This document shows positions 1-52,560 of a stretch of 64,000 bases of DNA, piece by piece. The stretch lies in NCBI RefSeq assembly GCF_058153355.1, contig NZ_CM177019.1. One strand, given 5' to 3'. Position numbers and translations under genes: made by a program. Within the stretch, counting starts at the first letter, position 1. Every line of letters begins with the position of its first letter. Under the pieces are notes generated by a model that was not told where the DNA came from, made no database searches, and saw only the letters and a program-made list of their open reading frames with translations.

Positions 1-390
1 CAGAATCTGAAAGTTGCCATCTTCGAGAAAGGCACCACTACCAACCTTATCGGTGGTAACACGGCCATTGCGCTTAATAAAACATATGTGGCCAAACTGT
101 ACTCGGATGAAAACCAGAACGATAAATACGACGCAGGTACGGATATGGACGTTACCGCTAACTATGACTTTGCATGGGTCTTTAACGGTAACAGTAAACA
201 ACTCCGTGCTGCAGGCGGTATTGCTAATGCCAGCTTCGATAACAATGACATTGTTATCCCGCAAACTAACGAAGAAGCAAGAACCAGCCTTAACGGTAGT
301 GACCGTAATGGTAAGAGTGGTCTTGCGATCCCAGCAAACGGCGACGGCGTTCAGGGCTATACGCTGTCAATTATTTACAAACACCACTAA
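1..390 (+). CDS. 3' end of an ORF whose start lies upstream of the window; tentatively an intimin/invasin-family (SinH/SinI-like) accessory surface protein
   Basis: Frame 1 is open from base 1 to the TAA at 388-390 (..NLKVAIFEKGTTTNLIGGNTAIALNK..SIIYKHH). Product guess rests only on position beside the RatA-like gene at the xseA locus. Confidence 0.4.
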   Translation, partial: QNLKVAIFEKGTTTNLIGGNTAIALNKTYVAKLYSDENQNDKYDAGTDMDVTANYDFAWVFNGNSKQLRAAGGIANASFDNNDIVIPQTNEEARTSLNGSDRNGKSGLAIPANGDGVQGYTLSIIYKHH

Positions 391-499
391 TGCGCACGAC
401 TGCATTCCCGTAGGGGAATGCTGTTTTCCGCCTGTTTTGCTTAGCGACGCGTTAAGCAAAACAGGTTGATGTTTTGTTTATCATGTTGGAGTTTTCTAC

Positions 500-3400
500 A
501 TGTCGGTATGTCTGAAACCAGGGAAAATCATTATGCTTCTGGGCATGTTGGCAGCGTTTATGCTGTCTGACTTTGCACGAGCAGGGGTGGAATGGCAGAC
601 ATATCCTGATTCTACAGGCGAGTTTAACGGAACCGTTCCTTTTGCCGACAGCGCCAGCGTACCCGTCTATCAGGGCAGTGTTCAGCTTAATCCTGGCGAA
701 TCTCATGATGTCGGGTTTTCTGCTAAACCGAATGAATTTAGCGTTGACGATGACGCCGCTAACCTGATTGTTGCTAATCCTCAGGACAATGAAGGCGACC
801 AGTTTTCCACACCACCTGCGCTGCGCTGGGAAAATCAAACACCCCCTACCGTCAGCCTGGTGTGGGCCGATGCCGCCACGCCCGATGTACCCCTTAACCC
901 ACAACCCATTGCTAACCGTAGCTTTTGTGCTCAGGGGCTCGCCGGACGCTCGCTGGTGGCCTGGCCGCAGATTGATGCGCAGCAAACCCTCCCACTGCTC
1001 TACCTGTTGACCTCGACCGGCTATCCCTATGCGGGGACGGTGGCGCTGGTGGACCAGAAAGTGACCCTGAACATCGCGCCCGCGCAGGGCGATTTAATCT
1101 CGGTGAGCGCCAGCGGTTATAACGAAACGATCGCGGCGGCAAAAACCACCGTTGGCGACACCATCACGCTCACCGTCACCACTAAAGATTGTCAGGGCAA
1201 CGTCGCGGGTAATATTCCGTTTATTATCAAACGTAAAGATGCTGAAAATCGCCAGGGGGCAGTGAATAATAGTGCGCCAGTGGTACTGGATAGCACCGAG
1301 TTAACGACGACGGCTACCGAATACCATGGCACCTCTGATGCCAACGGCACGGCCACCATCACGGTGAGCCAACCGAACGGCCCTGGCGTCAAAACGCCAC
1401 TGGTGGTCAGCATTTCCGGCATTGCGCAAACCAGCGAAACCGCGGTGATTTTTACGGTGCTCACCAGCCCGGACGCGGCGCAGGCTACGATGTGGGGCCA
1501 TATGGCGGAAACGGTAGAAGCGCACGGTTACACCTTCAGTCGACCAAAGCTGGCGGCAGAAGTCAGCAATGAAAGCGCCACGGTCGTCGATCACAACGAA
1601 ACCTGGTCCACCTTCACCTGGAGCGGCGCAGATAACCACTGCACCGTGCTGCCCGGCATGCGCCACTTCGGCGCGCTGGCGACCGTTATCCCCACATCGG
1701 TGCAGACAGTCCTTGGCTGGCCGATGCAGGGGGATTATTACTGGTCATCGCTGGCGGGCACCACCGGGCAGCACCATGCGGCGGATGTCTCTAACCGTGG
1801 TGAAACGCAAAAGCCGGATAGCACCCCGTTTCTTGTAAGCTGCGTGGATAAACCCGCGCCTGATGTCGAGCCGAAAATCGTCCTTACGCCCGAAAACTAT
1901 GATGATACGGCACAGGCGATGAAATCGCAGGTGGGCGAAGACGCCACGATGCGTCTGACGATCACCGACAATAAAAATAACGATCAACCACTGGCGTATT
2001 ACTACTTCTCGCTGCATCTGGATGACGGCGTTAACCGCAAAAATCAAACCGATTCCGCCTGGGAAGCCCATCCGGTGCAGATTACTGGTGGTTCGAATTT
2101 GCAACAGGTTGATGCTCACACCTATGAAGGCATGACCGATGTCAACGGTCAGGCTTCGCTAACCCTGAGTCAGCCCGACGGCGCAGGCGTGAAAACCCAT
2201 ATCACGGCGAAAATGCGCAGCAATTTTACGGCTACAGATGCCAAAGACGTGATTTTTACTGTGATCACCAGCCCGGACAGCGACAAGGCGCGGATGTGGG
2301 GCCATATGCGCGGCATTGTTGTATCTGGCAGTCTGTTCAAACGCCCAGTGCTGGCGGATGAAACTGAGCATGAACTGGGATCGGTGCGGGAAAATAACGA
2401 AGACTGGGCGCTGTTCGATCAAGACACCAGTATGCAGGCTGAATGCGGCGTCGGCCATACGCCAAGTCAGAGTGGGCTGGAAAGCCTTTTTTCAGCCCAT
2501 CCCGGTAACGCGATTGGCACTGAGTATGGCTGGCCCACCGCACAACAGAACTACCTAAGCGCGGTGGAGCAAGCCACGCATTCATCGGTGAATTTGGCGA
2601 ACGGAAACGTCGACAGCTACCCCGGCTTTAAGCGAAATTACCTCTCCTGTTCGGGCAATGAGATGGTCGCGAAGGTTGAAGTGAGCACCGATCACGATGT
2701 CACCCCTGGCAGCAAAGCGCAGGCCAAAGTGGGAGACACCGTCGTGATGACCGTGCGTACGGTTAACGCGCTCAATAATACCCCCGTTCCCTTTACTGCC
2801 TTCACCATCACTAAAGGCATGGGGTATAACCGAGCGGGGCTGGTGAGCGGGTTTGATGACCCGAGCAGCGGCGCAATCTCGATGAATGGCACGCAATACG
2901 GCACATCGCAGCCGTCGATGGTTTATACGGGTACGACAGATGCACAAGGCGTGGCAACGGTCGAAATAGAGCAACCACAAGGCGTCGGGCTAAGAACGGC
3001 GCTGAGCGTAACGCCGGTAAATTCCTACCTGCCGAATACCGTTAATTACAGCGTTATTTTCACCACCCCAACCAGCCCGGACGTTATTGGCGCGCAGATG
3101 TGGGGCCATATGGATGAAACGATTACTGTTGATTCATTAACCTTTACCCGGCCTAAGCTGGCAGCAGAAATCGCCAGTCCGGATGGCACACTAACGGAAA
3201 AAAACGAAGTCTGGGCGCGCGTTAGCCAGGCCAGTACGGCCATTACCAGTAAAGGCGGTTGCGGAGCCAATATGCTGCCGCGTCGCTCACAGCTCAGTGC
3301 GCTCTATGACGCTAATAACGGCAATGCGGTGCAAACCACACACGGCTGGCCGACGCAGCGTCAGCCCTACTGGAGCAGTTCCCCCGCGGATGTAACGCCG

Positions 3401-6400
3401 CACTATTACACCATTGCCCTGGATAACGGCGCACAGGCTATCGGCGGCGATACGCCGGTTTACGTCAGTTGCCTGACGACGGCGAACAAACCTGCCAGCA
3501 GCATTACGCTGGATGTGGTTGATAACGCACAGTGGGCTGCCGGAAATAACGCGGCGAAGCTGAAAAAAGGCGAAACGCTACGGGTTAAGGTAACGGTAAA
3601 AGATGCGCAGGGTAATCCGCTCACGGATATGCCATTTAAACTGAGTCGCGGAGACGGTTATACCCGCACGGGCGAAAAACATATTGCCGGTAGTGGCGAT
3701 GCGCTGGTGGCACCGGTGGTGATTAACAGTGGGCTGGCGGATGAAACGACGTTGAACGACACCGCGGGATTTTATACTGCCATGACCGGTAGCGACGGCA
3801 GCAAAATCCTCAATATTACCCGCCCGGATACTCACGGCACCAAAACGGCGCTGACGGCGACGTTGTATTCCGATGCAACAAAAAAAGACAGCCTGGATAC
3901 GATCTTTACTGTGGTCACCAGCCCGGATAGTAGCAAAGCGAAAATGTGGGGGCATATGCCGGAAACGGTGACGGCTGCGGACGGTACGGTATTTAAACGC
4001 CCGCTGTTGTTGAAGGAACTGGCCTATCAGACTGGGCGAACATCGACGTCTGAAGACAATGAAAACTGGGCGTTGTTTAACATTAATTATGCGAGTTCTT
4101 CCACGACGTATAGTGGCTGTGGAACCAACTATATTCCGACTCAAGCCGGTCTGACGTCACTGTTTGCTAATAATGCGGGCAACACCATGAAAACCGTGCA
4201 GGGCTGGCCGGTGGCAACACGCTATTTGTCCAACACGTCCGACAACGGCAGCATGGAGCAGCGTAACTACAAGGCGGTAGATCTCAGCAATGGCACGAGT
4301 GCGGCAGTGTCATCAACGGCGCTGCAACTGCTGACCTGCCAGACCACGCCGGTAACCACGGTGGGCCAAATTCTGCTGGAAGCGGCAGATCCGGCGACGC
4401 TGGATACCACCTATAACGTGGTAAAAGCGAAAAAAGGCGAAGAATCCGTGGTGCGCGTCACCACCAAAGATACGCAAGGCAACCTGGTGGGCAATACGGC
4501 ATTTATCCTGACGCGTGCCAACAGCGTGAGTCGGGCTAACGCATCAGCAACCGCGAGCGTGGGCGCGCTGACGGTGACGGATGCTTGGGGAAATACGCGA
4601 AATAATTTCCAGTCGACGAGTGAAACGATTTACGGCGTGACTGGTGCAGACGGGTCAACGACATTTACCCTGAAACAGGATAACAGTACCGGGTTAAGAA
4701 CCGATCTCACGGCAAAACTGGATACGTCCAGCAGCGTCAAGGCGACGCTACCGGTGGTCTTTACTGTCGTGACCAGCCCGGATTCGCCAAAAGCGAATTT
4801 TTGGGGACATATGGCCGAAACGGTGATGGCCTCCGACGGTACAATCTATAAACGACCACTGTTGTTGAAAGAGCTGAGTAACACCAGTGGTCGAAATTCT
4901 ACGGCTGAAAACGGTGAAGATTGGGCAAGATTCACCTGGACTCAGTCGGCTGACACCAGCATGAATGGGTGTGGTACAGATTATATGCCGACGCTGGATG
5001 GACTGAAGTCTTTGTATGACGCCAATAGCGGTAATGTGATGAGTACGGTGCAGGGATGGCCGGTAAAAACGACCTATCTCACCAATACCCCGAGTGATAC
5101 GCAAACAGGGAGCCGTTACTACAATGTGGTGCAACTGAATACTGGTGCAGTCTCACAAATCTCGACGAACACAGTCGTGCTACAAACCTGCCGCACAACG
5201 CCGTTGACGGCTGCTAGCCAGATTACGCTGGAGGCCTCAGACCCCGCGCAATTTGTCAGCATTGACAGTACGCTTAGCGCGATCAAAGTGCAGAAAGGCG
5301 ATAGCGTGTCGATCCGCATTTCGACTAAAGATGCACAGGGGAATTTAGTCGGCAATACGCCGTTTGCCCTGAAACACGCTAACCCGGTCAATCGCCAAAA
5401 TGTGGCGTCAACATCGCAGAAAGTGTCGGTCACGACTGCGTCGGGTACGACGGTGGATACCACTGCATCGACCATTCTGTATGGCGTGACCGGGCCAGAC
5501 GGAACCACCACGATGACACTCCGACAGGATGCGTCTACTGGACTCAAAACCGACTTTTATGCTCTGTTGAACGATACCGGCGTGTCGTCGAACACCTTGC
5601 CAGTGATCTTCACCGTCGTCACCAGCCCGGATACACCGCTGGCGGCCAACTGGGGGCATATGGCAGAAACCTTTACCAGCAGCAAGGGAGTCACCTTCAA
5701 ACGGCCTTTCCTCAAAGCTGAACTTTCTGGTGGTACGGCGGTAACGACCAATAATGAAGTCTGGTCGCGCCTGACAGCAACGGAGAAAACGGATGCCAGC
5801 AAGGCTGGGTGTGATGAGAGTTATCAACCGCTGATGACTGACATGCAGGGGTTGTATGCGGATTACCCTAACAACCAGTTGGGCACGGTGCTCGGCTTGC
5901 CGACTTCCGCCGGGTATATGTGGGCCTACGACATGATGACGGTTTCTGGCAGCAGCTGGAGCAACCAGGCATATTCGCTCGTTAATGGTCAGACAGTTCA
6001 GGCATCGTCCAGTTATACGGCGGTAGTGATGTGCCTGGTGGAACCGCATACCGTTCCGGCGATGATAGAGATCACTTCAACAGCACAGGATGCGGCAAAA
6101 ACGGTCAGCAATGGTGGTCGACCGAGCGCCGTAGCGAAGAAAGGTGAGACGATTCCGCTGACGGTGACCGTACGTGATAGCACCGGGAATCCGGTACCCT
6201 ACGCCGACTTTACCCTCACGCGTGGAACGACGCTGGATCGCTCGAAAGCAACCGTTAACTCGAGTGCGGACGATCTTACCGTGAAGTCATTGATACCCGC
6301 GAACAGTGACGCTGGGCTGACGGCAAATGGGGCAAAAGTGCTCAGAACAACGGGCAGTGATGGCACAGCCACCTTTGAAGTGAGCCAGAATGCCACGACA

Positions 6401-8590
6401 GGACTGGCGACCCCCATAACCGTCACGCTGGCGCGTGATGTAACCAAAACCGCCACGCTGGATGTTATCTACACGGTGATAACCAGCCCGGACTCACCGA
6501 GCGCGAAATTCTGGGGGCACATGCCGGACACCTTTACCAGTTCGGCAGGCGTCACCTTCAGACGACCGCTGCTGAAAGCCGAAGCGACTTCAGGGTCATC
6601 GATTAGCACTAACGGCAATGGTGAAGTGTGGTCGTATATGAGCAACGTTCAAAATTTAACATCGACAGATTGTCCGCTGGAGAATCAACCGCGCAGTAAT
6701 GAATTGTTGGATTTGTATAATGATCATCCCAACGGCGCGATAATGACTGACCTGGGGCTGCCGATATATGCAGGCAAGTGGTGGGCTTATGATATGGTCA
6801 TGCCGGATTTATATACGTGGCAGTATCAGACGGTCAGCCTGAGCGCAGGAGATATCGCGAAGAGCTCGGCAAGCAACGCGCTGATGCTTTGCCTGACGAA
6901 GCCGCATCCGGCAGGCGTCAGCGTAATGTTGACGTCATCCGCAATGGATAACGCCAGAACCCTCAGTAATGGCGGGCGACCCAGCGCGTCAGTGAAAAAA
7001 GGTAACCCACTGCCAATTGTGGTGACGGTCAAAGATCGTGATGGCAACCCGCTGGCGGGAGAGGCCGTGACGCTCAGGCGTGGTTCAGCGATGAGTCGTT
7101 CAGGAGCAGGAGTGGGCACGCCGGCAAATGCAATGACGTTGACAGAATTGACACCTGTGTCGGCGGAGTTTTCTCTGGCCGCACACGATACGCAATGGCA
7201 AGGTTTCACCGGCAGTGATGGTACGGCCACTTTCAATGTTGAACAGCCTGAGACCATCGGCCTGGCCATTTCGTTCACCGCTATACTGGCGCGAGATGTA
7301 GCAACTACCAGCGTCCTTGATGCGATCTTTACCGTCGTTACCAGCCCGGATTCCGCAATGGCGACCTACTGGGGCCATATGCCGGATACGGTAACGGCGG
7401 AAAACGGCGTGGTCTTTGAACGGCCTAAATTGTTGAAAGAGCTGCCGTCGAGCGCCGGAGTCAGTCAGGTGACGGATAACAATGAAGTGTGGCCGTTGTT
7501 TAAGGCAACGCAAAGGGAAGATAGCAGCCTCAGTCCTTGTGAAGCGGCACGTCGGCCATTGAGCGATGATTTATTATCGCTCTACGCGCGCTATCCGGGG
7601 AACACGCTGACGACTCAAATCGGCTGGTCTACGAAGTATGCATGGTGGGCACTGGATAACAAGCAGGGGAATGCCCTGGTTGTCAGTCTGAATAATGGTT
7701 TTGAGTCGTCGACGGCGAGTACGGGGTATCAGGGATGTCTGGTCAATCCCCGCGCGACCGTCTCCAGCGTCACGCTGACATCGACGGCGCTGGATGCCAC
7801 TACGCAGGCAGCGAAGGTAAAAAAAGGTGAAGCCGTGCCCCTCGTTGTTACCGTAAAAGACAACGCCGGGAAGCCGGTACCGAATGTCGCTTTCACCTTA
7901 AAACGTGGTGATGCCATGCCACGTAACAGCGGGGCGACGTTGTACGGTGATGTTGCGGCGATGGATGATATGACGGTACAACCTGCCAGCGGGACGGTGG
8001 TAACGCTGGCTGACAGTGGGAATACGGTCGACGGAGTGACTGGGGCGGACGGTACGGCAAGTTTTACCGTTCGTCAGGATAATACGCCAGGATATAAAAC
8101 GCCGTTGACGGTGACGCTGACGGATAACGCCACAATAACGGCGATGCTGGATACGATTTTCACCGTCGTTACCAGTCCAAATGTACCCACAGCCCATTTT
8201 TGGGGACATATGTCGGATACCACTGTGGTAAACGGTAAAACGCTACATCGTCCACAGTTGGAATCAGAACTGCCATCGGCAGCCATCATGGTGGCAACAC
8301 CGAACGTCAATAATGAGACGTGGGCACTGGCGCATACTGTTGACTCGCAAAAATGGGATATTTCGCAGCAGTGCGGCCTCCTTGATTTTGCACCGAATTA
8401 TGCGGATTTAGAGGCTCTGCACACTAACTTCAGTACTCTCGGATGGCCGTCAATGCCTAATACCCCCTATCTATCTAAAGACAGAGAGCGGTCAGGTAAG
8501 TATTACTGCGGTATGATTGAAGAGACAGGTTCTCAATCTTGCAGTATTGAGCCTACCAGCACGCCGGGATTTGCTACTTGTGTCAGGTAA
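500..8590 (+). CDS. Giant secreted repeat protein, 2696 aa, RatA/RatB-like Ig-domain repeat protein
   Basis: Single uninterrupted ORF. GGAG at 486-489 precedes the ATG at 500. N-terminus has a signal-peptide-like stretch ([17 protein letters not shown]). Nine repeats each carry the motif [13 protein letters not shown]. Confidence 0.8.
1100..8400 (+). repeat. Nine tandem, divergent ~800-860-bp coding repeats inside the giant ORF
   Basis: The motif accagcccggac (TSPD) recurs near 1463, 2267, 3071, 3917, 4772, 5621, 6482, 7340 and 8171. Each is preceded by a KKGE..V.VT.KD..GN block and followed by a NE.W..CG..GWP..YW block. Confidence 0.8.
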
Positions 8591-8628
8591 AAAAAACAGA
8601 GCCAGCACGACGATGCTGGCGCGTTTTA
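8591..8628. terminator. Bidirectional intrinsic terminator between the convergent giant ORF and xseA
   Basis: Stem gccagc/gctggc (8601-8620) has an A-run on one side (8589-8597) and gcgtttt on the other. Confidence 0.6.
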
Positions 8629-8634
8629 TCTGAT

Positions 8635-10041
<1,407 letters not shown>

Positions 10042-10124
10042 TTATTCAGTCGATAGTAACCCGCCCTCCGGGGATAGCAAGCATTTTTTGCAAAAAGGGG
10101 TAGATGCAATCGGTTACGCTCTGT

Positions 10125-10130
10125 ATAATG
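10125..10130 (+). promoter_or_regulatory. Candidate -10 hexamer (TATAAT) of the guaBA promoter
   Basis: Perfect TATAAT lies 43 bp upstream of the guaB start, with TAGATG 17 bp further upstream as a weak -35. Confidence 0.35.
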
Positions 10131-10172
10131 CCGCGGCAATATTTATTAACCACTCTGGTCGAGATATTGCCC

Positions 10173-11639
10173 ATGCTACGTATCGCTAAAGAAGCTCTGA
10201 CGTTTGACGACGTTCTCCTCGTTCCTGCACATTCTACCGTTCTGCCGAATACCGCTGACCTCAGCACCCAGCTGACGAAAACTATTCGTCTGAATATCCC
10301 TATGCTCTCCGCAGCAATGGATACCGTAACGGAAGCGCGCCTGGCTATCGCCCTGGCTCAGGAAGGCGGTATCGGCTTTATCCACAAAAACATGTCCATT
10401 GAACGCCAGGCTGAAGAAGTTCGCCGCGTGAAAAAACACGAATCTGGCGTGGTAACCGATCCGCAGACTGTTCTGCCAACCACGACGCTGCGCGAAGTGA
10501 AAGAGCTGACCGAGCGTAACGGTTTTGCAGGCTATCCGGTTGTGACCGAAGAAAACGAACTGGTCGGCATTATCACCGGTCGTGACGTGCGTTTTGTTAC
10601 CGATCTGAACCAGCCGGTTAGCGTTTACATGACGCCGAAAGAGCGTCTGGTAACCGTGCGTGAAGGCGAAGCCCGTGAAGTGGTGCTGGCAAAAATGCAC
10701 GAAAAACGCGTTGAAAAAGCGCTGGTGGTTGATGATGAATTCCACCTGATCGGCATGATCACTGTGAAGGACTTCCAGAAAGCGGAACGTAAACCGAACG
10801 CCTGTAAAGACGAACAAGGCCGTCTGCGTGTAGGTGCAGCGGTTGGCGCAGGTGCGGGTAACGAAGAGCGTGTTGATGCGCTGGTTGCCGCAGGCGTTGA
10901 CGTTCTGCTGATCGACTCCTCTCACGGTCACTCTGAAGGCGTTCTGCAGCGTATCCGTGAAACTCGCGCTAAATATCCTGACCTGCAAATCATCGGCGGC
11001 AACGTGGCAACAGCTGCAGGTGCCCGCGCGCTGGCAGAAGCCGGTTGCAGTGCCGTTAAAGTGGGTATCGGCCCAGGTTCTATTTGTACTACCCGCATTG
11101 TTACTGGCGTCGGTGTACCGCAGATCACTGCCGTTGCTGACGCAGTAGAAGCCCTGGAAGGCACCGGGATTCCGGTTATCGCTGACGGTGGTATTCGTTT
11201 CTCTGGCGATATCGCCAAAGCTATCGCTGCTGGTGCAAGCGCGGTGATGGTAGGTTCCATGCTGGCGGGTACTGAAGAATCCCCAGGTGAAATCGAGCTC
11301 TACCAGGGCCGTTCTTACAAGTCTTACCGTGGGATGGGCTCTCTGGGCGCGATGTCCAAAGGTTCTTCTGACCGTTACTTCCAGAGCGACAACGCTGCCG
11401 ACAAACTGGTGCCGGAAGGTATCGAAGGCCGTGTAGCCTACAAAGGTCGTCTGAAAGAGATCATTCACCAGCAGATGGGCGGCCTGCGCTCCTGTATGGG
11501 CCTGACCGGCTGTGGTACTATCGACGAACTGCGTACTAAAGCGGAGTTTGTACGTATCAGCGGTGCGGGCATTCAGGAAAGCCACGTTCACGACGTGACC
11601 ATTACTAAAGAGTCCCCGAACTACCGTCTGGGCTCCTGA
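10173..11639 (+). CDS. guaB: IMP dehydrogenase
   Basis: Start placed at [21 protein letters not shown], internal to the 511-aa track ORF, giving 488 aa. CBS and IMPDH catalytic motifs ([11 protein letters not shown]) are present. Confidence 0.95.
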
Positions 11640-11707
11640 TTCTCTTCGCCCGACTTCATGTCGGGCGATTTATATTATCTGTTTCACTTGCCTCGGAATA
11701 AGCGTCA

Positions 11708-13285
11708 ATGACGGAAAACATTCATAAGCATCGCATCCTCATTCTGGACTTCGGTTCTCAGTACACCCAACTGGTTGCGCGCCGCGTGCGTGAACTGGGT
11801 GTTTACTGCGAACTGTGGGCGTGGGATGTGACAGAAGCACAAATTCGTGACTTCAATCCAAGCGGCATTATTCTTTCCGGCGGCCCGGAAAGCACCACCG
11901 AAGAAAACAGCCCGCGTGCGCCGCAGTATGTCTTTGAAGCAGGCGTACCGGTATTCGGCGTTTGCTATGGTATGCAGACCATGGCAATGCAGTTGGGTGG
12001 TCATGTTGAAGCCTCTAACGAACGTGAATTTGGCTATGCGCAGGTTGAAGTCGTAAACGACAGCGCCCTGGTTCGCGGTATCGAAGATGCTCTGACAGCA
12101 GACGGTAAACCTCTGCTCGATGTCTGGATGAGCCACGGCGATAAAGTTACCGCTATCCCGTCCGACTTCATCACCGTAGCCAGCACCGAAAGCTGCCCGT
12201 TCGCCATCATGGCAAATGAAGAAAAACGCTTCTATGGCGTACAGTTCCACCCGGAAGTGACTCACACCCGCCAGGGGATGCGCATGCTGGAGCGTTTTGT
12301 GCGTGATATCTGCCAGTGTGAAGCCCTGTGGACGCCAGCGAAAATTATCGACGATGCAGTAGCCCGTATCCGCGAGCAGGTAGGCGACGATAAAGTGATC
12401 CTCGGCCTCTCTGGTGGCGTGGATTCCTCCGTGACTGCAATGCTGCTGCACCGCGCAATCGGCAAAAACCTGACTTGCGTATTCGTCGACAACGGCCTGC
12501 TGCGTCTCAACGAAGCAGAGCAGGTTCTGGATATGTTTGGCGATCACTTTGGTCTGAACATTGTTCACGTTCCGGCAGAAGATCGCTTCTTGTCAGCGCT
12601 GGCTGGTGAAAACGATCCGGAAGCAAAACGTAAAATCATTGGTCGCGTTTTCGTTGAAGTATTCGATGAAGAAGCGCTGAAACTGGAAGATGTGAAGTGG
12701 CTGGCGCAGGGTACTATCTACCCTGATGTTATCGAATCTGCCGCGTCTGCAACCGGTAAAGCGCACGTCATCAAATCTCACCACAACGTGGGCGGCCTAC
12801 CGAAAGAGATGAAGATGGGCCTGGTTGAACCGCTGAAAGAGCTGTTCAAAGACGAAGTGCGTAAAATTGGTCTGGAGCTGGGCCTGCCGTACGACATGCT
12901 GTACCGTCACCCGTTCCCGGGACCAGGGCTTGGCGTTCGTGTGCTGGGCGAAGTGAAGAAAGAGTACTGCGACCTGCTGCGCCGTGCTGATGCCATCTTC
13001 ATTGAAGAACTGCGTAAAGCGGACCTGTACGACAAAGTTAGCCAGGCGTTTACCGTGTTCCTGCCGGTACGTTCTGTTGGCGTAATGGGCGATGGTCGTA
13101 AATACGACTGGGTTGTGTCTCTGCGTGCCGTCGAAACCATCGACTTTATGACCGCACACTGGGCGCATCTGCCGTACGATTTCCTTGGTCGCGTTTCCAA
13201 CCGCATTATCAATGAAGTGAACGGTATTTCCCGCGTGGTGTATGACATCAGCGGCAAGCCACCGGCGACTATTGAGTGGGAATGA
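11708..13285 (+). CDS. guaA: GMP synthase (glutamine-hydrolysing)
   Basis: 525-aa ORF beginning [40 protein letters not shown]. Confidence 0.95.
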
Positions 13286-13310
13286 TTTGATCCCTGCACT
13301 ATGAATTAGC

Positions 13311-13342
13311 AAAACCCTCTGTTACTACAGAGGGTTTTTTAT
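13311..13342. terminator. Intrinsic terminator between convergent guaA and yfgI
   Basis: Stem ccctctgt/acagaggg with a 4-nt loop, followed by tttttt and preceded by aaaa. Confidence 0.75.
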
Positions 13343-13378
13343 ACTCACGAATCATAGGATTGAAGTTACTGACATCGC

Positions 13379-13918
13379 TTAGTTAAACCAGCTGTCCGAT
13401 TTGTTCTCTTCTGCTTTGCCCACGCTTTTCATCAGATCGCGACCGCCTTCAGTCATATTCCTGTTTGCGTCAGCTTCAGATTGCACCACATCGGTTTGCG
13501 CAGCTTTGTGCTTCAGTTCCTGATCGATAAATTCGTTTTCTCGCTTAACGCGGGCTTCTTCTTTCGCCAGCGCCAGTTTTTGTTTCTGAATCTCTAAGCT
13601 GCGTAGCTCATCTTCATAACTTTGATCGCGTTTCTTGTCCGCAGTGGCTTCGGCGTCCAGTTTATCCTGACGAGCTTTCTTATTCGCCGCTGCCGTTGCC
13701 GCTCTTTTATTAGCCGCGGCCTGGGCGTTTGCGCGACGTTGCTTCTCTTGCTGGATTTCCCTGTTGCGCTCCGCGACCCATTCGTCATGCTGCCTTTGCT
13801 CTTCATTTTTACCTTGCTGTTCCGCTTCTGCGACAGCAGAGAGTTGATCCTGCAATGATGAGGCGATAGCCGGATAGCTTAAGGAGGCTAAGATGGCGCA
13901 AAGAAAAACTTTCTTCAT
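13379..13918 (-). CDS. yfgI: Uncharacterised secreted protein YfgI
   Basis: 179-aa ORF with signal peptide (MKKVFLCAILASLSYPAIA) and a charged, coiled-coil-like body; position matches K-12 yfgI. Confidence 0.8.
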   Translation of the reverse strand: MKKVFLCAILASLSYPAIASSLQDQLSAVAEAEQQGKNEEQRQHDEWVAERNREIQQEKQRRANAQAAANKRAATAAANKKARQDKLDAEATADKKRDQSYEDELRSLEIQKQKLALAKEEARVKRENEFIDQELKHKAAQTDVVQSEADANRNMTEGGRDLMKSVGKAEENKSDSWFN

Positions 13919-13933
13919 GACTCCTCCTGATTA

Positions 13934-14452
13934 TTAGCTCTTTTCAGGACATTTGGTATTTGGCTGAATACGCGTTTCGTTATACGTCGTGGTAATAACA
14001 ACGGCTAAACCTGTCGTAAACTGGCACTCTTTACCCACCTGGGTGGAGGTATACACTTTGGTGCCTTCCTTATACGTTAGAGAAACACCTTCCACTAAGG
14101 TTTTATCATTCACCATAGAACCTGCTGCCGCGCCAACAGCTCCGCCGCCAACTGCACCTGCCGTCGTTCCGGAATTGCTGCCAGACCCCACGTTGTGGCC
14201 GATAACACCGCCAGCGACTGCACCAATAAGCGCGCCGAAGGCTTGTGCGTTTCGTTTATTTTGGGAGTTGTCTACGGCAACTTTTGCGGGAAGAATGGAA
14301 ATAATATTAACGGTTTTAGTTTCTTGTTTGGTATTCAGTTGATCGGTTTGATAAACATCGGCGGCATGATCATCAGCATTTGACTGGCATCCTGCCAGAG
14401 TGAATGACGCTAACATTGCCACAGGTAGAAGACATTTTTTAAATTTCATCAC
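13934..14452 (-). CDS. yfgH: Outer-membrane lipoprotein YfgH (glycine-zipper)
   Basis: 172-aa ORF with a lipobox (LAGC) and a Gly-rich zipper (GALIGAVAGGVIGHNVG). Confidence 0.8.
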   Translation of the reverse strand: MMKFKKCLLPVAMLASFTLAGCQSNADDHAADVYQTDQLNTKQETKTVNIISILPAKVAVDNSQNKRNAQAFGALIGAVAGGVIGHNVGSGSNSGTTAGAVGGGAVGAAAGSMVNDKTLVEGVSLTYKEGTKVYTSTQVGKECQFTTGLAVVITTTYNETRIQPNTKCPEKS

Positions 14453-14762
14453 TATTCCTTGTTATACACATTACGAAAAATAAGACATTTAAGATCATCA
14501 AAAGAGGAAAGTAAATGTATTGCGTATAAAGGAATAGATTAAATTTATTAAAATTCATGTGGAAAATAATTTATAAAAATACATCATTAAAACATATGTA
14601 TTAATTTTATATTTATTTCGCAGCCAAACAGGATAAACATCAGTCAGGACAAAGACGTAAAATTTAAGATGAAAGAATATCTGCCGCTTTGATAATCCCA
14701 AAGAGCAAAAGCATCCGACAGCGAGGTGCCGTTATGTTCTGTGAAAGTGGAGAAGGTAACCG

Positions 14763-14954
14763 CTAACGTTGTACCGGTGATTCGACGGAGAGTGTGGATT
14801 GCTGAGCTTCTTTTTTGCTCTGATGGTGCTGCCATGCACCGACGGACGAGTAGATAAAACGGCCAAAGAAGAAGATAAAGCTGATGAGCAGTACGATACG
14901 GGTCATGCGACTGTTAAATCGGTGTCGTTTTCGCATACTGGTTGCCTGACTCAC
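14763..14954 (-). CDS. yfgG: Small membrane protein YfgG
   Basis: 63-aa ORF at the K-12 yfgG position, in an AT-rich intergenic tract, with one hydrophobic segment. Confidence 0.6.
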   Translation of the reverse strand: MSQATSMRKRHRFNSRMTRIVLLISFIFFFGRFIYSSVGAWQHHQSKKEAQQSTLSVESPVQR

Positions 14955-15305
14955 AAAAGGTTCCTTGAAGTATGTCCCACGCCGTGGACGGTACTTACAT
15001 TAAGGCACAACAGGACAAAATGGTCAATTCTTCGTTATGTAAAAAAGCGTCAGTGGATACATATTTTAATGTTATGGAAGTTAATTTAATTATTTACAAT
15101 GATGATGTAATAATGATGAATTAACATGATAAACGTAATAATTCATTAATCAGGGGTATTTTGTTTGATATATATCAATTGGAACTTTCATATGACACTT
15201 AGAATCAATGCTCTCTATAGTGATGAATAATCATCATTCGAAGTCAGGTGGGATGCCTGTCTGAATACACCTCCTTCAGGATGTGGGGGATTCTGCTGAG
15301 CATCT

Positions 15306-17549
15306 ATGAAACTGAATGCAACCTATATAAAAATACGTGATAAATGGTGGGGGCTTCCGCTGTTCCTGCCTTCTTTAATCTTGCCCATTTTCGCCCATAT
15401 TAATACTTTCGCGCATATTTCTTCCGGTGAGGTTTTTCTCTTTTACCTGCCTTTGGCACTGATGATCAGCATGATGATGTTTTTCAGCTGGGCGGCATTG
15501 CCAGGGATCGCCTTAGGGATTTTTGTCCGCAAATATTCAGAGCTGGGTTTTTACGAAACGCTCTCATTAACAGCTAATTTTATTATCATTATCATTCTCT
15601 GTTGGGGCGGTTACAGGGTCTTTACTCCCCGGCGTAACAACGTTTCACATGGTGATACCCGTTTAATTTCCCAGCGTATATTCTGGCAGATTGTGTTTCC
15701 TGCAACGCTGTTTCTGATACTTTTCCAGTTTGCCGCATTTGTAGGGTTACTGGCGAGTAGAGAAAATCTGGTCGGCGTCATGCCTTTTAACCTCGGGACC
15801 TTAATCAATTATCAGGCCTTACTGGTGGGCAATCTGATTGGTGTTCCGCTGTGCTACTTCATCATTCGGGTGGTGCGAAATCCGTTTTATTTACGCAGCT
15901 ATTATTCGCAATTAAAACAGCAAGTTGATGTGAAAGTCACCAAAAAAGAGTTCGCGCTCTGGCTACTGGCATTAGGTGCGTTGTTGTTGCTGTTATGCAT
16001 GCCGTTAAATGAAAAAAGCACGATTTTCAGCACCAATTATACCTTGTCATTATTGCTACCCCTGATGATGTGGGGAGCCATGCGCTATGGTTATAAGTTG
16101 ATTTCGCTGCTCTGGGCGGTCGTGCTGATGATCAGCATCCACAGCTATCAAAATTACATTCCCATTTATCCTGGCTATACCACGCAACTGACCATAACCT
16201 CCTCCAGTTATCTGGTATTCTCTTTTATTGTCAATTATATGGCTGTACTGGCAACCCGTCAGCGAGCGGTAGTCAGACGCATTCAGCGGCTTGCGTATGT
16301 GGACCCGGTGGTTCATCTGCCAAATGTTCGCGCCCTGAATCGCGCGTTGCGTGATGCCCCCTGGTCTGCGCTTTGTTATTTACGCATCCCCGGCATGGAA
16401 ATGCTGGTTAAGAACTATGGCATCATGCTACGGATTCAATACAAGCAAAAACTTTCTCACTGGCTGTCACCATTGCTGGAACCGGGTGAAGATGTTTATC
16501 AGCTTTCGGGTAACGATCTCGCGCTGCGACTGAATACAGAATCGCACCAGGAGCGCATTACCGCACTGGATAGCCATCTCAAGCAATTTCGTTTCTTTTG
16601 GGATGGAATGCCGATGCAACCGCAGATTGGCGTCAGTTACTGCTATGTACGCTCGCCGGTGAATCATATCTACCTGCTGCTGGGAGAGCTAAATACGGTT
16701 GCTGAACTCTCCATCGTGACCAACGCTCCAGAAAATATGCAGCGCCGCGGGGCTATGTATTTACAACGTGAATTGAAAGATAAAGTCGCGATGATGAATC
16801 GGCTACAGCAGGCATTGGAGCATAACCATTTTTTCCTGATGGCCCAGCCGATTACCGGTATGCGTGGTGATGTCTACCATGAAATTCTTCTGCGCATGAA
16901 AGGTGATAATGATGAACTGATCAGCCCCGACAGCTTCTTGCCGGTCGCGCACGAATTTGGTTTATCGTCGAGTATCGACATGTGGGTCATTGAGCATACG
17001 CTGCAATTTATGGCTGAAAACAGAGCGAAGATGCCCGCTCACCGTTTTGCGATTAATCTGTCGCCAACCTCGGTATGTCAGGCTCGTTTTCCCGTTGAAG
17101 TCAGTCAGCTGCTGGCTAAATATCAAATTGAAGCGTGGCAACTTATTTTTGAAGTCACCGAAAGTAATGCTCTGACCAATGTTAAGCAGGCGCAGATCAC
17201 CTTGCAGCATCTTCAGGAATTAGGCTGCCAGATTGCGATTGATGATTTCGGAACCGGCTACGCCAGCTATGCACGGCTTAAAAATGTGAATGCCGATCTG
17301 CTTAAAATTGACGGCAGTTTTATCCGCAATATTGTGTCAAATAGTCTGGATTATCAGATAGTGGCGTCGATTTGCCACCTGGCGCGAATGAAGAAAATGC
17401 TGGTAGTGGCAGAGTACGTTGAAAACGAAGAGATCCGCGAGGCGGTGCTCTCTTTGGGGATCGATTATATGCAGGGTTATCTTATTGGTAAGCCGCAACC
17501 GTTAATTGATACGCTGAATGAAATCGAACCCATTCGCGAAAGTGCCTGA
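15306..17549 (+). CDS. pdeF: Cyclic-di-GMP phosphodiesterase PdeF (YfgF): MASE1, degenerate GGDEF and EAL domains
   Basis: 747-aa ORF with a multi-TM N-terminus and a C-terminal EAL domain (EVTES.., DDFGTGYAS). Confidence 0.88.
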   Translation: MKLNATYIKIRDKWWGLPLFLPSLILPIFAHINTFAHISSGEVFLFYLPLALMISMMMFFSWAALPGIALGIFVRKYSELGFYETLSLTANFIIIIILCWGGYRVFTPRRNNVSHGDTRLISQRIFWQIVFPATLFLILFQFAAFVGLLASRENLVGVMPFNLGTLINYQALLVGNLIGVPLCYFIIRVVRNPFYLRSYYSQLKQQVDVKVTKKEFALWLLALGALLLLLCMPLNEKSTIFSTNYTLSLLLPLMMWGAMRYGYKLISLLWAVVLMISIHSYQNYIPIYPGYTTQLTITSSSYLVFSFIVNYMAVLATRQRAVVRRIQRLAYVDPVVHLPNVRALNRALRDAPWSALCYLRIPGMEMLVKNYGIMLRIQYKQKLSHWLSPLLEPGEDVYQLSGNDLALRLNTESHQERITALDSHLKQFRFFWDGMPMQPQIGVSYCYVRSPVNHIYLLLGELNTVAELSIVTNAPENMQRRGAMYLQRELKDKVAMMNRLQQALEHNHFFLMAQPITGMRGDVYHEILLRMKGDNDELISPDSFLPVAHEFGLSSSIDMWVIEHTLQFMAENRAKMPAHRFAINLSPTSVCQARFPVEVSQLLAKYQIEAWQLIFEVTESNALTNVKQAQITLQHLQELGCQIAIDDFGTGYASYARLKNVNADLLKIDGSFIRNIVSNSLDYQIVASICHLARMKKMLVVAEYVENEEIREAVLSLGIDYMQGYLIGKPQPLIDTLNEIEPIRESA

Positions 17550-17554
17550 ATAAT

Positions 17555-17581
17555 GCGGGCCGACATTTCTTGTCGGCCCGC
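17555..17581. terminator. GC-rich hairpin between convergent pdeF and ppx
   Basis: Stem gcgggccgaca/tgtcggcccgc with a 6-nt loop; no strong U-tract. Confidence 0.45.
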
Positions 17582-17587
17582 AAAGCA

Positions 17588-21200
<3,613 letters not shown>

Positions 21201-51189: not shown

Positions 51190-51256
51190 TAGCCTGGTAG
51201 ATACTGTTATGGCCTGCAAGTTTTTTTCTACCCCGGTTTCCCAGATTGCAGGCATG

Positions 51257-52560
<1,304 letters not shown>

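Follow-up and report, generated by a model that had tools for sequence, protein, structure and literature searches.

An 8.1-kb gene near the start of the window (the 64,000-nucleotide stretch of DNA analysed here) is the RatA-like member of the E. coli ila island (sinH-sinI-ratA), and the unit repeated nine times in its product is the one that single-chain InvE-type inverse autotransporters have as their C-terminal tip; the Sec-exported protein is probably displayed by SinH and SinI as a long multivalent colonisation adhesin, with its N-terminus proximal and an exchangeable tip distal. The protein scored 5386.4 bits against NCBIfam NF011844 (PRK15316, 'RatA-like protein'; cut-off 3870), its residues 3–2695 aligning to profile positions 1–2682 of 2683, and a 100% identical protein (P0001) is already in NCBI as 'RatA-like protein [Escherichia coli]'. 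The gene is not a discovery: it has been catalogued, annotated and named, has been mutated in UPEC and is virulence-associated. The island is a recognised colonisation locus of ExPEC and Salmonella, and SinH is under development as a vaccine antigen, which makes the biology of its giant neighbour RatA relevant; the N-terminal peptide of SinI and RatA, the intergenic hairpins and the swappable tip offer footholds on the route of RatA to the surface and on its binding partner.

The locus is the counterpart of the Salmonella CS54 island

Over 14,590 nt the window is matched without a difference by a contig (L054) that has full sinH and sinI and the order der-yfgJ-sinH-sinI-ratA-xseA. This is the position, between xseA and yfgJ, of the Salmonella enterica CS54 island, from which the UPEC cluster named ila (sinH, sinI, ratA) is derived (PMC12928451, PMC3739510); unlike CS54, the E. 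coli island lacks shdA and ratB. The window begins within sinI (Table 1), whose product is annotated in the closest complete genome as a 330-aa SinI family autotransporter-associated protein and scores 377 bits against NCBIfam NF040711 (partner_SinI). In K-12 MG1655, yfgJ abuts xseA with nothing between them. The gene order on the identical contig, the Rat profile matches and the K-12 arrangement bear out the preliminary description, which had placed the gene at the CS54 locus and had K-12 without such a gene beside xseA. The locus could be detected in 1741 of the 5426 complete E. coli genomes, and the E. coli RatA of the UPEC CFT073/Nissle-type allele has the same site, neighbours, nine-repeat architecture and length (2683–2696 aa).

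The order sinH-sinI-rat was kept in all 22 Rat-type loci with upstream DNA available, drawn from Escherichia, Citrobacter, Pseudocitrobacter, Superficieibacter and Leminorella, although SinI is only 39–45% identical across these five genera. Salmonella loci were not returned by this genome scan, probably because the exact peptide patterns used differ there, and Salmonella is covered through NCBIfam profiles and protein matches only. Salmonella RatA (NF011843) and RatB (NF011842) have the same N-terminal domain as the window protein (E = 2e-66 and 9e-63) and are likewise built of BIg21/InvE_AD (DUF823/DUF824) repeats, in line with the Rat-family similarity proposed earlier; its scores of 1957 bits against NF011843 (1860 positions, cut-off 3700) and 2254.2 bits against NF011842 (2435 positions, cut-off 4079) fall below the cut-offs, so that by NCBI's criteria it belongs to a sister family and is not an orthologue.

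By direct reading of the window sequence the ratA ORF is intact across 8.1 kb, and this length, together with a dN/dS of ~0.17 against its alleles, argues that it is not a chance ORF. Its GGAG Shine-Dalgarno sequence is kept in an alignment of the sinI-ratA intergenic DNA of relatives, and ratA and xseA are convergent.

Table 1. Features of the ratA region, in window coordinates
Feature	Position (nt)	Strand	Remarks
sinI 3' end	1..390	+	last ~129 codons; window begins within sinI
Two successive hairpins, each followed by a T-run	402..466 (402-421, 430-466)	+	terminator-like scan
ratA Shine-Dalgarno GGAG	488..491	+	8 nt 5' of ATG; direct reading
ratA-like CDS	500..8590	+	2696 aa + stop; ATG start, single terminal stop
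Sec-type signal peptide, aa 1-28	500..583	+	predicted cleavage ARA|G; direct reading and hydropathy
Conserved N-terminal all-beta domain, aa 29-218 (190 aa)	584..1153	+	hallmark of Rat proteins
Mature N-terminal peptide, aa 29-50	584..649	+	motif in common with SinI mature N-terminus
Repeat 1: BIg21 aa 219-321, InvE_AD aa 324-449	1154..1846	+	Pfam
Repeat 2: BIg21 aa 483-589, InvE_AD aa 592-718	1946..2653	+	Pfam
Repeat 3: BIg21 aa 745-856, InvE_AD aa 860-992	2732..3475	+	Pfam
Repeat 4: BIg21 aa 1024-1139, InvE_AD aa 1142-1280	3569..4339	+	Pfam; modelled; PDB 5n40 sequence match
Repeat 5: BIg21 aa 1313-1424, InvE_AD aa 1427-1564	4436..5191	+	Pfam; modelled
Repeat 6: BIg21 aa 1600-1707, InvE_AD aa 1710-1846	5297..6037	+	Pfam
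Repeat 7: BIg21 aa 1882-1994, InvE_AD aa 1997-2131	6143..6892	+	Pfam
Repeat 8: BIg21 aa 2168-2280, InvE_AD aa 2283-2413	7001..7738	+	Pfam
Repeat 9: BIg21 aa 2443-2557, InvE_AD aa 2560-2695	7826..8584	+	Pfam
C-terminal tip cassette, aa ~2556-2696	8165..8587	+	last adhesion domain, four Cys; allele comparison
ratA/xseA intergenic hairpin, T-runs on both strands	8601..8620		candidate bidirectional terminator; terminator-like scan
xseA	8635..10011	-	downstream boundary of island

RatA is an array of nine InvE-type tip modules

The N-terminal domain is followed by nine divergent repeats of 248–287 aa. The motifs FT[VT]xTSP[DN] and WGHM occur nine times each, with repeat motif positions at aa 318, 586, 854, 1136, 1421, 1704, 1991, 2277 and 2554 (spacing 268–287 aa), and Pfam found nine BIg21 + InvE_AD pairs with E-values of 1e-18 to 1e-38; with a pairwise protein identity of 26–44% among the repeats, the earlier account of a 2696-aa protein built of nine divergent tandem repeats stands. 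There is one Cys pair, 66–74 residues apart, in each adhesion domain, and the last adhesion domain has four Cys.

Repeats 4 and 5 are covered by an AlphaFold model with a pLDDT of 88.8. One RatA repeat, whose structure prediction had been proposed as a check in the preliminary description, superposes on the last two domains of Yersinia pseudotuberculosis InvE (PDB 5n40) at 1.7 Å over 246 residues, with 28% identity and the motifs TSPD, WG(H/N)M, RP, NE.W and GWP in common. Each module pairs an Ig-like BIg21 domain, in rigid coupling, with an InvE-type adhesion domain whose fold is that of the C-type-lectin superfamily. Of the Ig-like plus lectin-like block described earlier, the fold is upheld by Pfam and the InvE superposition; Ig-like and adhesion families were found, as BIg21 and InvE_AD, and not as the Big_1 and Lectin_C that had been named. 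Lectin_C had no match in Pfam (only Lcl_C, at E = 0.013), EPN and WND are absent from the RatA adhesion domains, and QPD occurs once, by chance; with no conserved EPN/QPD...WND sugar/Ca2+ motif, these domains are lectin-like in fold only.

InvE combines an N-terminal beta-barrel and one tip module in a single chain, whereas RatA has nine modules and no barrel: three Pfam scans spanning the whole of RatA gave no match to the IAT_beta (PF11924) barrel of type Ve inverse autotransporters, which lies in the neighbouring SinH. In all 12 loci checked from Xenorhabdus, Yersinia and Pantoea, the RatA-type module forms the end of a barrel-containing ORF. Like type Ve passengers, RatA is made of Ig-like domains with a C-type-lectin-like adhesion domain at the end; it does not have the N-terminal TPS domain (Haemagg_act) of TpsA proteins of two-partner secretion. 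The correspondence between the RatA repeat and the InvE-type tip finds no mention in the literature searched.

The array is old and its last domain has been exchanged

The window allele is of a rare class, DNA at least 95% identical to it being present in only 13 of the 5426 complete E. coli genomes, and differs from the common alleles (~86% and ~74% identical to it in DNA) in carrying a rare C-terminal tip domain. Synonymous divergence between ratA alleles is 0.5 and >1.6 for two other allele classes, and the best match of each repeat in these classes is the repeat of the same number; sequence comparison thus supports the preliminary view that the array is old and maintained. Recent slippage or duplication was rejected, since at the DNA level only blocks of at most 119 nt are recognisable between repeats (60–78% identity) and orthology is one-to-one across old alleles.

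Many database entries are shorter (6–8 repeats or partial), one genome (H55) keeps only a 204-nt ratA remnant and in host-adapted Salmonella lineages ratB is a pseudogene (PMC8011750), all of which would suit a ratA that is decaying or silent, left over from an island acquired horizontally and without present function in E. coli. We give that reading scarcely any credence, because the 8.1-kb ORF is intact in the window and in the three other alleles examined (2683–2696 aa), and the low dN/dS against its alleles holds over synonymous divergences up to >1.6.

Judged from allele comparison, the last adhesion domain of the window allele is a recombinational swap. The closest allele is otherwise 98% identical, yet the tip cassette is only 61% identical to it where all other domains are 93–100%, and its dS is 2.7 against 0.04–0.06 elsewhere; the nearest cassettes are that of the identical P0001 and then those of E. 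albertii alleles, at 80%. The saturated dS of the divergent tip points to recombination and not to positive selection. Diversifying selection was rejected as the force behind allele divergence, dN/dS being 0.09–0.24 everywhere across ratA. Exchange of the last adhesion domain goes unmentioned in the literature searched. From xseA to guaBA the DNA is only ~93.5% identical to most E. coli, whereas positions 14–38 kb of the window are 97–99% identical to nearly all E. coli, which marks the former as a local import tract; an origin in a cryptic Escherichia species was rejected on the same ground.

RatA and SinI begin with a common peptide

The signal peptide reported in the preliminary description was recovered by direct reading and hydropathy: its n-region is basic, its hydrophobic core spans 13 residues (Kyte-Doolittle mean 2.76) and an A-x-A site is present. 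An equivalent leader is found in all RatA orthologues compared. Hydropathy over the mature protein gave no further membrane-like segment, and Pfam scans of the whole protein with direct reading gave no beta-barrel, lipobox or membrane segment. A lipoprotein or beta-barrel anchor inside RatA was rejected on the missing lipobox and barrel match.

A Sec signal with neither barrel nor lipobox would also fit a RatA that stays in the periplasm or cell envelope in a structural or envelope role and is not an adhesin, and an 18-domain, 2668-aa folded rod would be a hard substrate for a 12-stranded inverse-autotransporter barrel, whose lumen is blocked by a single helix (Heinz et al.). We nevertheless consider such retention quite improbable: the domains of RatA are those of extracellular invasin tips, alleles have exchanged its distal domain, which would be expected of a host-exposed part, and island mutants are reported to be attenuated in infection models.

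SinI and RatA have in common a ~20-residue mature N-terminal consensus, G-x-W-x(5-7)-[ST]-T-x-x-[FIL]-x-G-T-x-P, found from Salmonella to Leminorella; in the AlphaFold model the first 12 mature residues of RatA are flexible or of low confidence. The motif is kept at the protein level and not at the codon level, and gene conversion was rejected as its source, the same codon being used in only 2–6 of 9–13 identical residues. As the DNA runs on without a break from the sinH 3' end through sinI to the ratA 5' end, co-variation of the two N-termini may partly reflect physical linkage. The literature searched makes no mention of this shared peptide. The N-terminal domain of RatA matches all three Rat NCBIfam profiles, and a search found neither a known fold nor a solved relative for this domain or for SinI.

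Conserved hairpins lie between sinI and ratA

Two successive hairpins follow the sinI stop and precede the ratA start (Table 1). Both are conserved in seven loci from three genera, in which four pairs hold their pairing despite changes on both sides. The double hairpin is, from its sequence, a candidate partial terminator or attenuator that would probably reduce ratA transcription relative to sinHI; it could equally mean that ratA is mostly untranscribed from the sinHI promoter. A scan of the interval between the hairpins and the ratA ATG found no promoter-like site. A conserved double hairpin at this place is not mentioned in the literature searched.

Strong terminator-like hairpins parting ratA from sinI would suit a RatA that exits the periplasm without SinH or SinI (by type II secretion, vesicles or lysis) and acts as a soluble or loose bridging adhesin or matrix protein, its adjacency to sinHI reflecting co-regulation or shared ancestry only; so would the lack in RatA of any domain recognisable as the anchor or targeting element of a known secretion system, and the finding that IatB, the E. 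coli orthologue of SinH, needs no downstream gene to promote biofilm (Goh et al. 2019, PMC6714894). This independent exit seems unlikely to us, given that the sinH-sinI-rat order is invariant in five genera despite the divergence of SinI, that the same module is covalently part of inverse autotransporter passengers elsewhere and that SinI and RatA have their N-terminal motif in common.

RatA may be displayed by SinH and SinI

In the display by SinH and SinI that we favour, RatA would be exported by Sec and then carried to the surface, or kept there, by SinH and SinI together, its conserved N-terminal end serving as the proximal docking end and its exchangeable C-terminal adhesion domain as the distal tip. 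By analogy with invasin the fibre would measure ~60–70 nm if extended, and it may bind host or mucus ligands and so aid colonisation. A two-partner-like model for SinH/SinI/Rat was proposed by Heinz et al. 2016, and a model like that of ZirT-ZirS/ZirU by Heinz 2016 and Goh 2019 (PMC6714894). In the Salmonella Zir system, as in SinH/SinI/Rat, an inverse autotransporter barrel protein is followed by co-encoded barrel-less Ig-fold proteins; ZirS and ZirU, which are secreted, are small proteins, against the 2696 aa of RatA, and the comparison is one of gene layout. Gene order lends circumstantial support to SinH/SinI-dependent export of RatA. An adhesin or colonisation role agrees with published work on island mutants, ila mutants being attenuated in mouse UTI according to PMC12928451, which cites Shea 2022.

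More tentatively, and with some doubt on our part, SinH, SinI and RatA may form a three-component, head-to-tail extension of the type Ve system, in which the N-terminal peptide would be a docking or export signal for the common SinH/SinI C-terminal domain, at aa ~615–724 in SinH. SinH, the barrel protein, would receive and hold RatA, with SinI as a possible adaptor, and the exchangeable last adhesion domain would decide which receptor is bound. This arrangement is suggested by the peptide shared by SinI and RatA together with a C-terminal domain that is common to SinH and SinI.

Identity of the gene and its island

The gene downstream of sinI is a single ORF with an ATG start, 2696 codons and one stop, the terminal one. 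Its product matches the NCBIfam equivalog NF011844, 'RatA-like protein', end to end (5386 bits against a cut-off of 3870), with matches to the Salmonella RatA and RatB equivalogs falling below their cut-offs; Pfam resolves it into nine consecutive pairs of BIg21 (PF05688, formerly DUF823) and InvE_AD (PF05689, 'adhesion domain', formerly DUF824). A public contig (L054), with 100% identity to the window across 14,590 nt, has der, yfgJ, sinH and sinI upstream, sinH encoding a 724-aa product with an IAT_beta barrel and sinI a 330-aa product. This gene order is shared by the closest complete genome and, with divergent alleles, by Nissle 1917 and a clinical isolate from Cambodia. The literature names the cluster ila (sinH, sinI, ratA), derived from the Salmonella CS54 island (PMC12928451), and STEC O117 carries the same island (PMC3739510); PMC12928451, citing Shea et al. 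2022, states that ila deletion attenuated UPEC in mouse urinary tract infection. The window's allele is rare and its tip unusual; the exact 2696-aa protein is already deposited in NCBI as 'RatA-like protein [Escherichia coli]'. From the NCBIfam match, this entry, the island order and the ila literature, the gene is a known, named RatA-like gene of a well-described island, annotated and experimentally mutated.

There are nine copies each of the motifs FT[VT]xTSP[DN] and WGHM, spaced 268-287 residues apart, and the nine units share 26-44% protein identity in alignments spanning the full unit; at the DNA level only blocks of at most 119 nt are recognisable, at 60-78% identity. Read directly from the sequence, the N-terminus looks like a Sec signal peptide, with a basic n-region, a hydrophobic core of 13 residues and ARA|G, and we found no membrane-like segment, lipobox or aromatic C-terminal residue in the mature protein. 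In K-12, yfgJ directly adjoins xseA with no gene between. The preliminary description, of a nine-repeat gene that encodes a leader and is missing from K-12, was thus right in every checkable respect.

Features of the window and of compared loci
Feature	Sequence	Coordinates	Strand
Hairpin with T-run, between sinI stop and ratA start	window	402-421	
Hairpin with T-run, between sinI stop and ratA start	window	430-466	
ratA-like ORF	window	500-8590	+
Shared peptide, RatA	window	584-649	
Shared peptide, SinI mature N-terminus	L054	4986-5050	
Last adhesion domain (aa ~2556-2696)	window	8165-8587	
xseA-guaB-guaA flank	window	8635-13500	
IS621 copy	window	51201-52478	
IS621 transposase ORF (326 aa)	window	51306-52286	-
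REP-derived naRNA4 element	window	52480-52556	
Rat-type array, 12 repeat matches	L016 (Leminorella grimontii)	7100-18243	
Second Rat-like gene	L016 (Leminorella grimontii)	16066 onward	

Architecture of the repeats and N-terminal domain

Modelling of repeats 4-5 (aa 995-1570) with AlphaFold, from an input of 32 repeat pairs taken from paralogues and orthologues, gave a confident structure (pLDDT 88.8, pTM 0.77). The suggestion that part of each repeat is lectin-like holds for the fold; no EPN/QPD...WND site is conserved in the adhesion domains, so the term is a fold label and not demonstrated sugar binding. The adhesion domains carry a single pair of Cys each, spaced 66-74 residues apart and presumably joined as a disulfide in the periplasm; in the last domain there are four Cys. 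Residues 29-218 match no Pfam family, are common to Salmonella RatA and RatB, and are 49-99% conserved over five genera.

An old array with a divergent tip

By megablast, 1741 of 5426 complete E. coli genomes have a ratA homologue, always chromosomal and single-copy, in three allele classes: at least 95% identity (13 genomes), ~86% (743) and ~74% over the first half (980), the last including Nissle 1917. For every repeat of the window protein, the best match in each of the other two classes is the repeat with the same number, and between alleles synonymous divergence is 0.5 and >1.6, with dN/dS of 0.09-0.24; together these point to an old nine-repeat array under purifying selection, bearing out the earlier view that the array is old and maintained. 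That ratA is a decaying remnant is very improbable, given the intact ORF and the purifying selection on the gene. Full-length relatives have 6 to 12 repeats.

Compared with an allele that is 93-100% identical elsewhere, the last adhesion domain reaches only 61% identity; dS is saturated in this domain, at 2.7 against 0.04-0.06 elsewhere, and its closest relatives, at 80%, come from E. albertii. By these comparisons the tip, presumed to be the distal domain that binds ligand, has been swapped by recombination.

The downstream flank is unusually divergent: xseA shows 80-90% identity to K-12 and guaBA forms a mosaic at 92-98%, the figure for the rest of the window being 97-99%. This flank is matched at >95% identity in only 18 of 5426 genomes. 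The divergence suggests that the island came in together with, or itself drove, an import by recombination reaching ~5 kb into core genes.

Scanning a single genome for each species revealed two kinds of locus. In one, a multi-repeat Rat protein follows sinH and sinI (all 22 loci with upstream DNA), mostly with yfgJ and xseA on either side; this kind occurs in Escherichia, Citrobacter, Pseudocitrobacter, Superficieibacter and Leminorella. In the other, seen in Xenorhabdus, Yersinia and Pantoea, a 1000-1185-aa ORF with an inverse-autotransporter barrel ends in a single C-terminal unit (12 of 12 checked). Compared with an InvE-type invasin, RatA is in effect its tip module, with the barrel detached and the module multiplied.

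Several scanned loci stood out. Pseudocitrobacter vendiensis (L006) and 'Citrobacter sp.' MAG loci (L005, L007, L012) carry islands nearly identical to the window's (sinI 3' end 97%, RatA N-terminal domain 98%, repeats 4-5 83-91%), which indicates either recent inter-genus island transfer or mislabelled records. A 3.1-kb MAG contig (L033) labelled Collinsella sp., an actinobacterium, codes for a B2-type E. coli sinH-sinI-ratA fragment with the N-terminal sequence of Nissle 1917, and is almost certainly a binning contaminant. The Leminorella grimontii array is the longest Rat-type array seen; it does not adjoin xseA, and after it comes a further Rat-like gene sharing the N-terminal motif, an arrangement that recalls Salmonella ratA-ratB.

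Possible attenuation and proposed display of RatA

The two hairpins between sinI and ratA are kept in three genera, Escherichia and Pseudocitrobacter among them, with compensatory changes: four pairs stay paired despite changes on both sides. We found no promoter-like site between the hairpins and the ratA ATG. The hairpins agree with the published co-transcription of sinH with sinI (PMC12525524), and their conservation suggests reduced read-through into ratA.

RatA combines a Sec leader and passenger-type domains with invariant linkage to the gene of a barrel protein, and no anchor or barrel was found within it. Display of Rat-like proteins via a barrel partner has been hypothesised by analogy with ZirT-ZirS/U (PMC4943183; PMC6714894); by the same analogy, RatA would be exported to the periplasm and then shown on or through SinH/SinI, its conserved N-terminus proximal and its C-terminal adhesion domain distal. 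The main alternative, that RatA is released independently of SinH, we consider unlikely, and a purely periplasmic role less likely still.

We found that mature SinI and mature RatA share an N-terminal motif of ~20 residues, directly after the signal peptides. It falls into two classes that co-vary within loci: in the window's class a 20-residue RatA peptide accompanies SinI EDAAWVASGATAEFEGTIPW, and in the other RatA LKSGTWQEVNTSTDAINGTVP accompanies SinI LKSGQWQIVTDSTGTIQGTVP. When a RatA-peptide profile was searched against 4730 six-frame ORFs from all loci, only SinI N-termini were recovered after the Rat proteins themselves, 13 at E 6e-6 to 1e-2, with SinI of the window's class matched more weakly (E about 1-2.6). 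Salmonella SinI and one Salmonella Rat fragment also have the motif. Identical residues mostly use different codons, the peptide being kept at the protein and not the codon level, which rules out gene conversion as the source of the similarity. Such a pattern would be consistent with a docking or export signal used by both proteins; the similarity could instead be inherited, and the co-variation of classes may be plain linkage. A three-component SinH-SinI-RatA assembly mediated by this peptide is put forward only tentatively. RatA mature residues 1-12 are low-confidence or flexible in an AlphaFold model, and the C-terminal ~110 residues of SinI are common to SinH (31% identity, E 1.5e-9).

An insertion elsewhere in the window

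Between ypfH and ypfN, adjoining the naRNA4 element, the window carries a copy of IS621, an IS110-family element with an RNA-guided (bridge-RNA) transposase. The closest complete genome does not have this insertion; IS621 occurs in 2244 of 5426 E. coli genomes, at a median of 5 copies.
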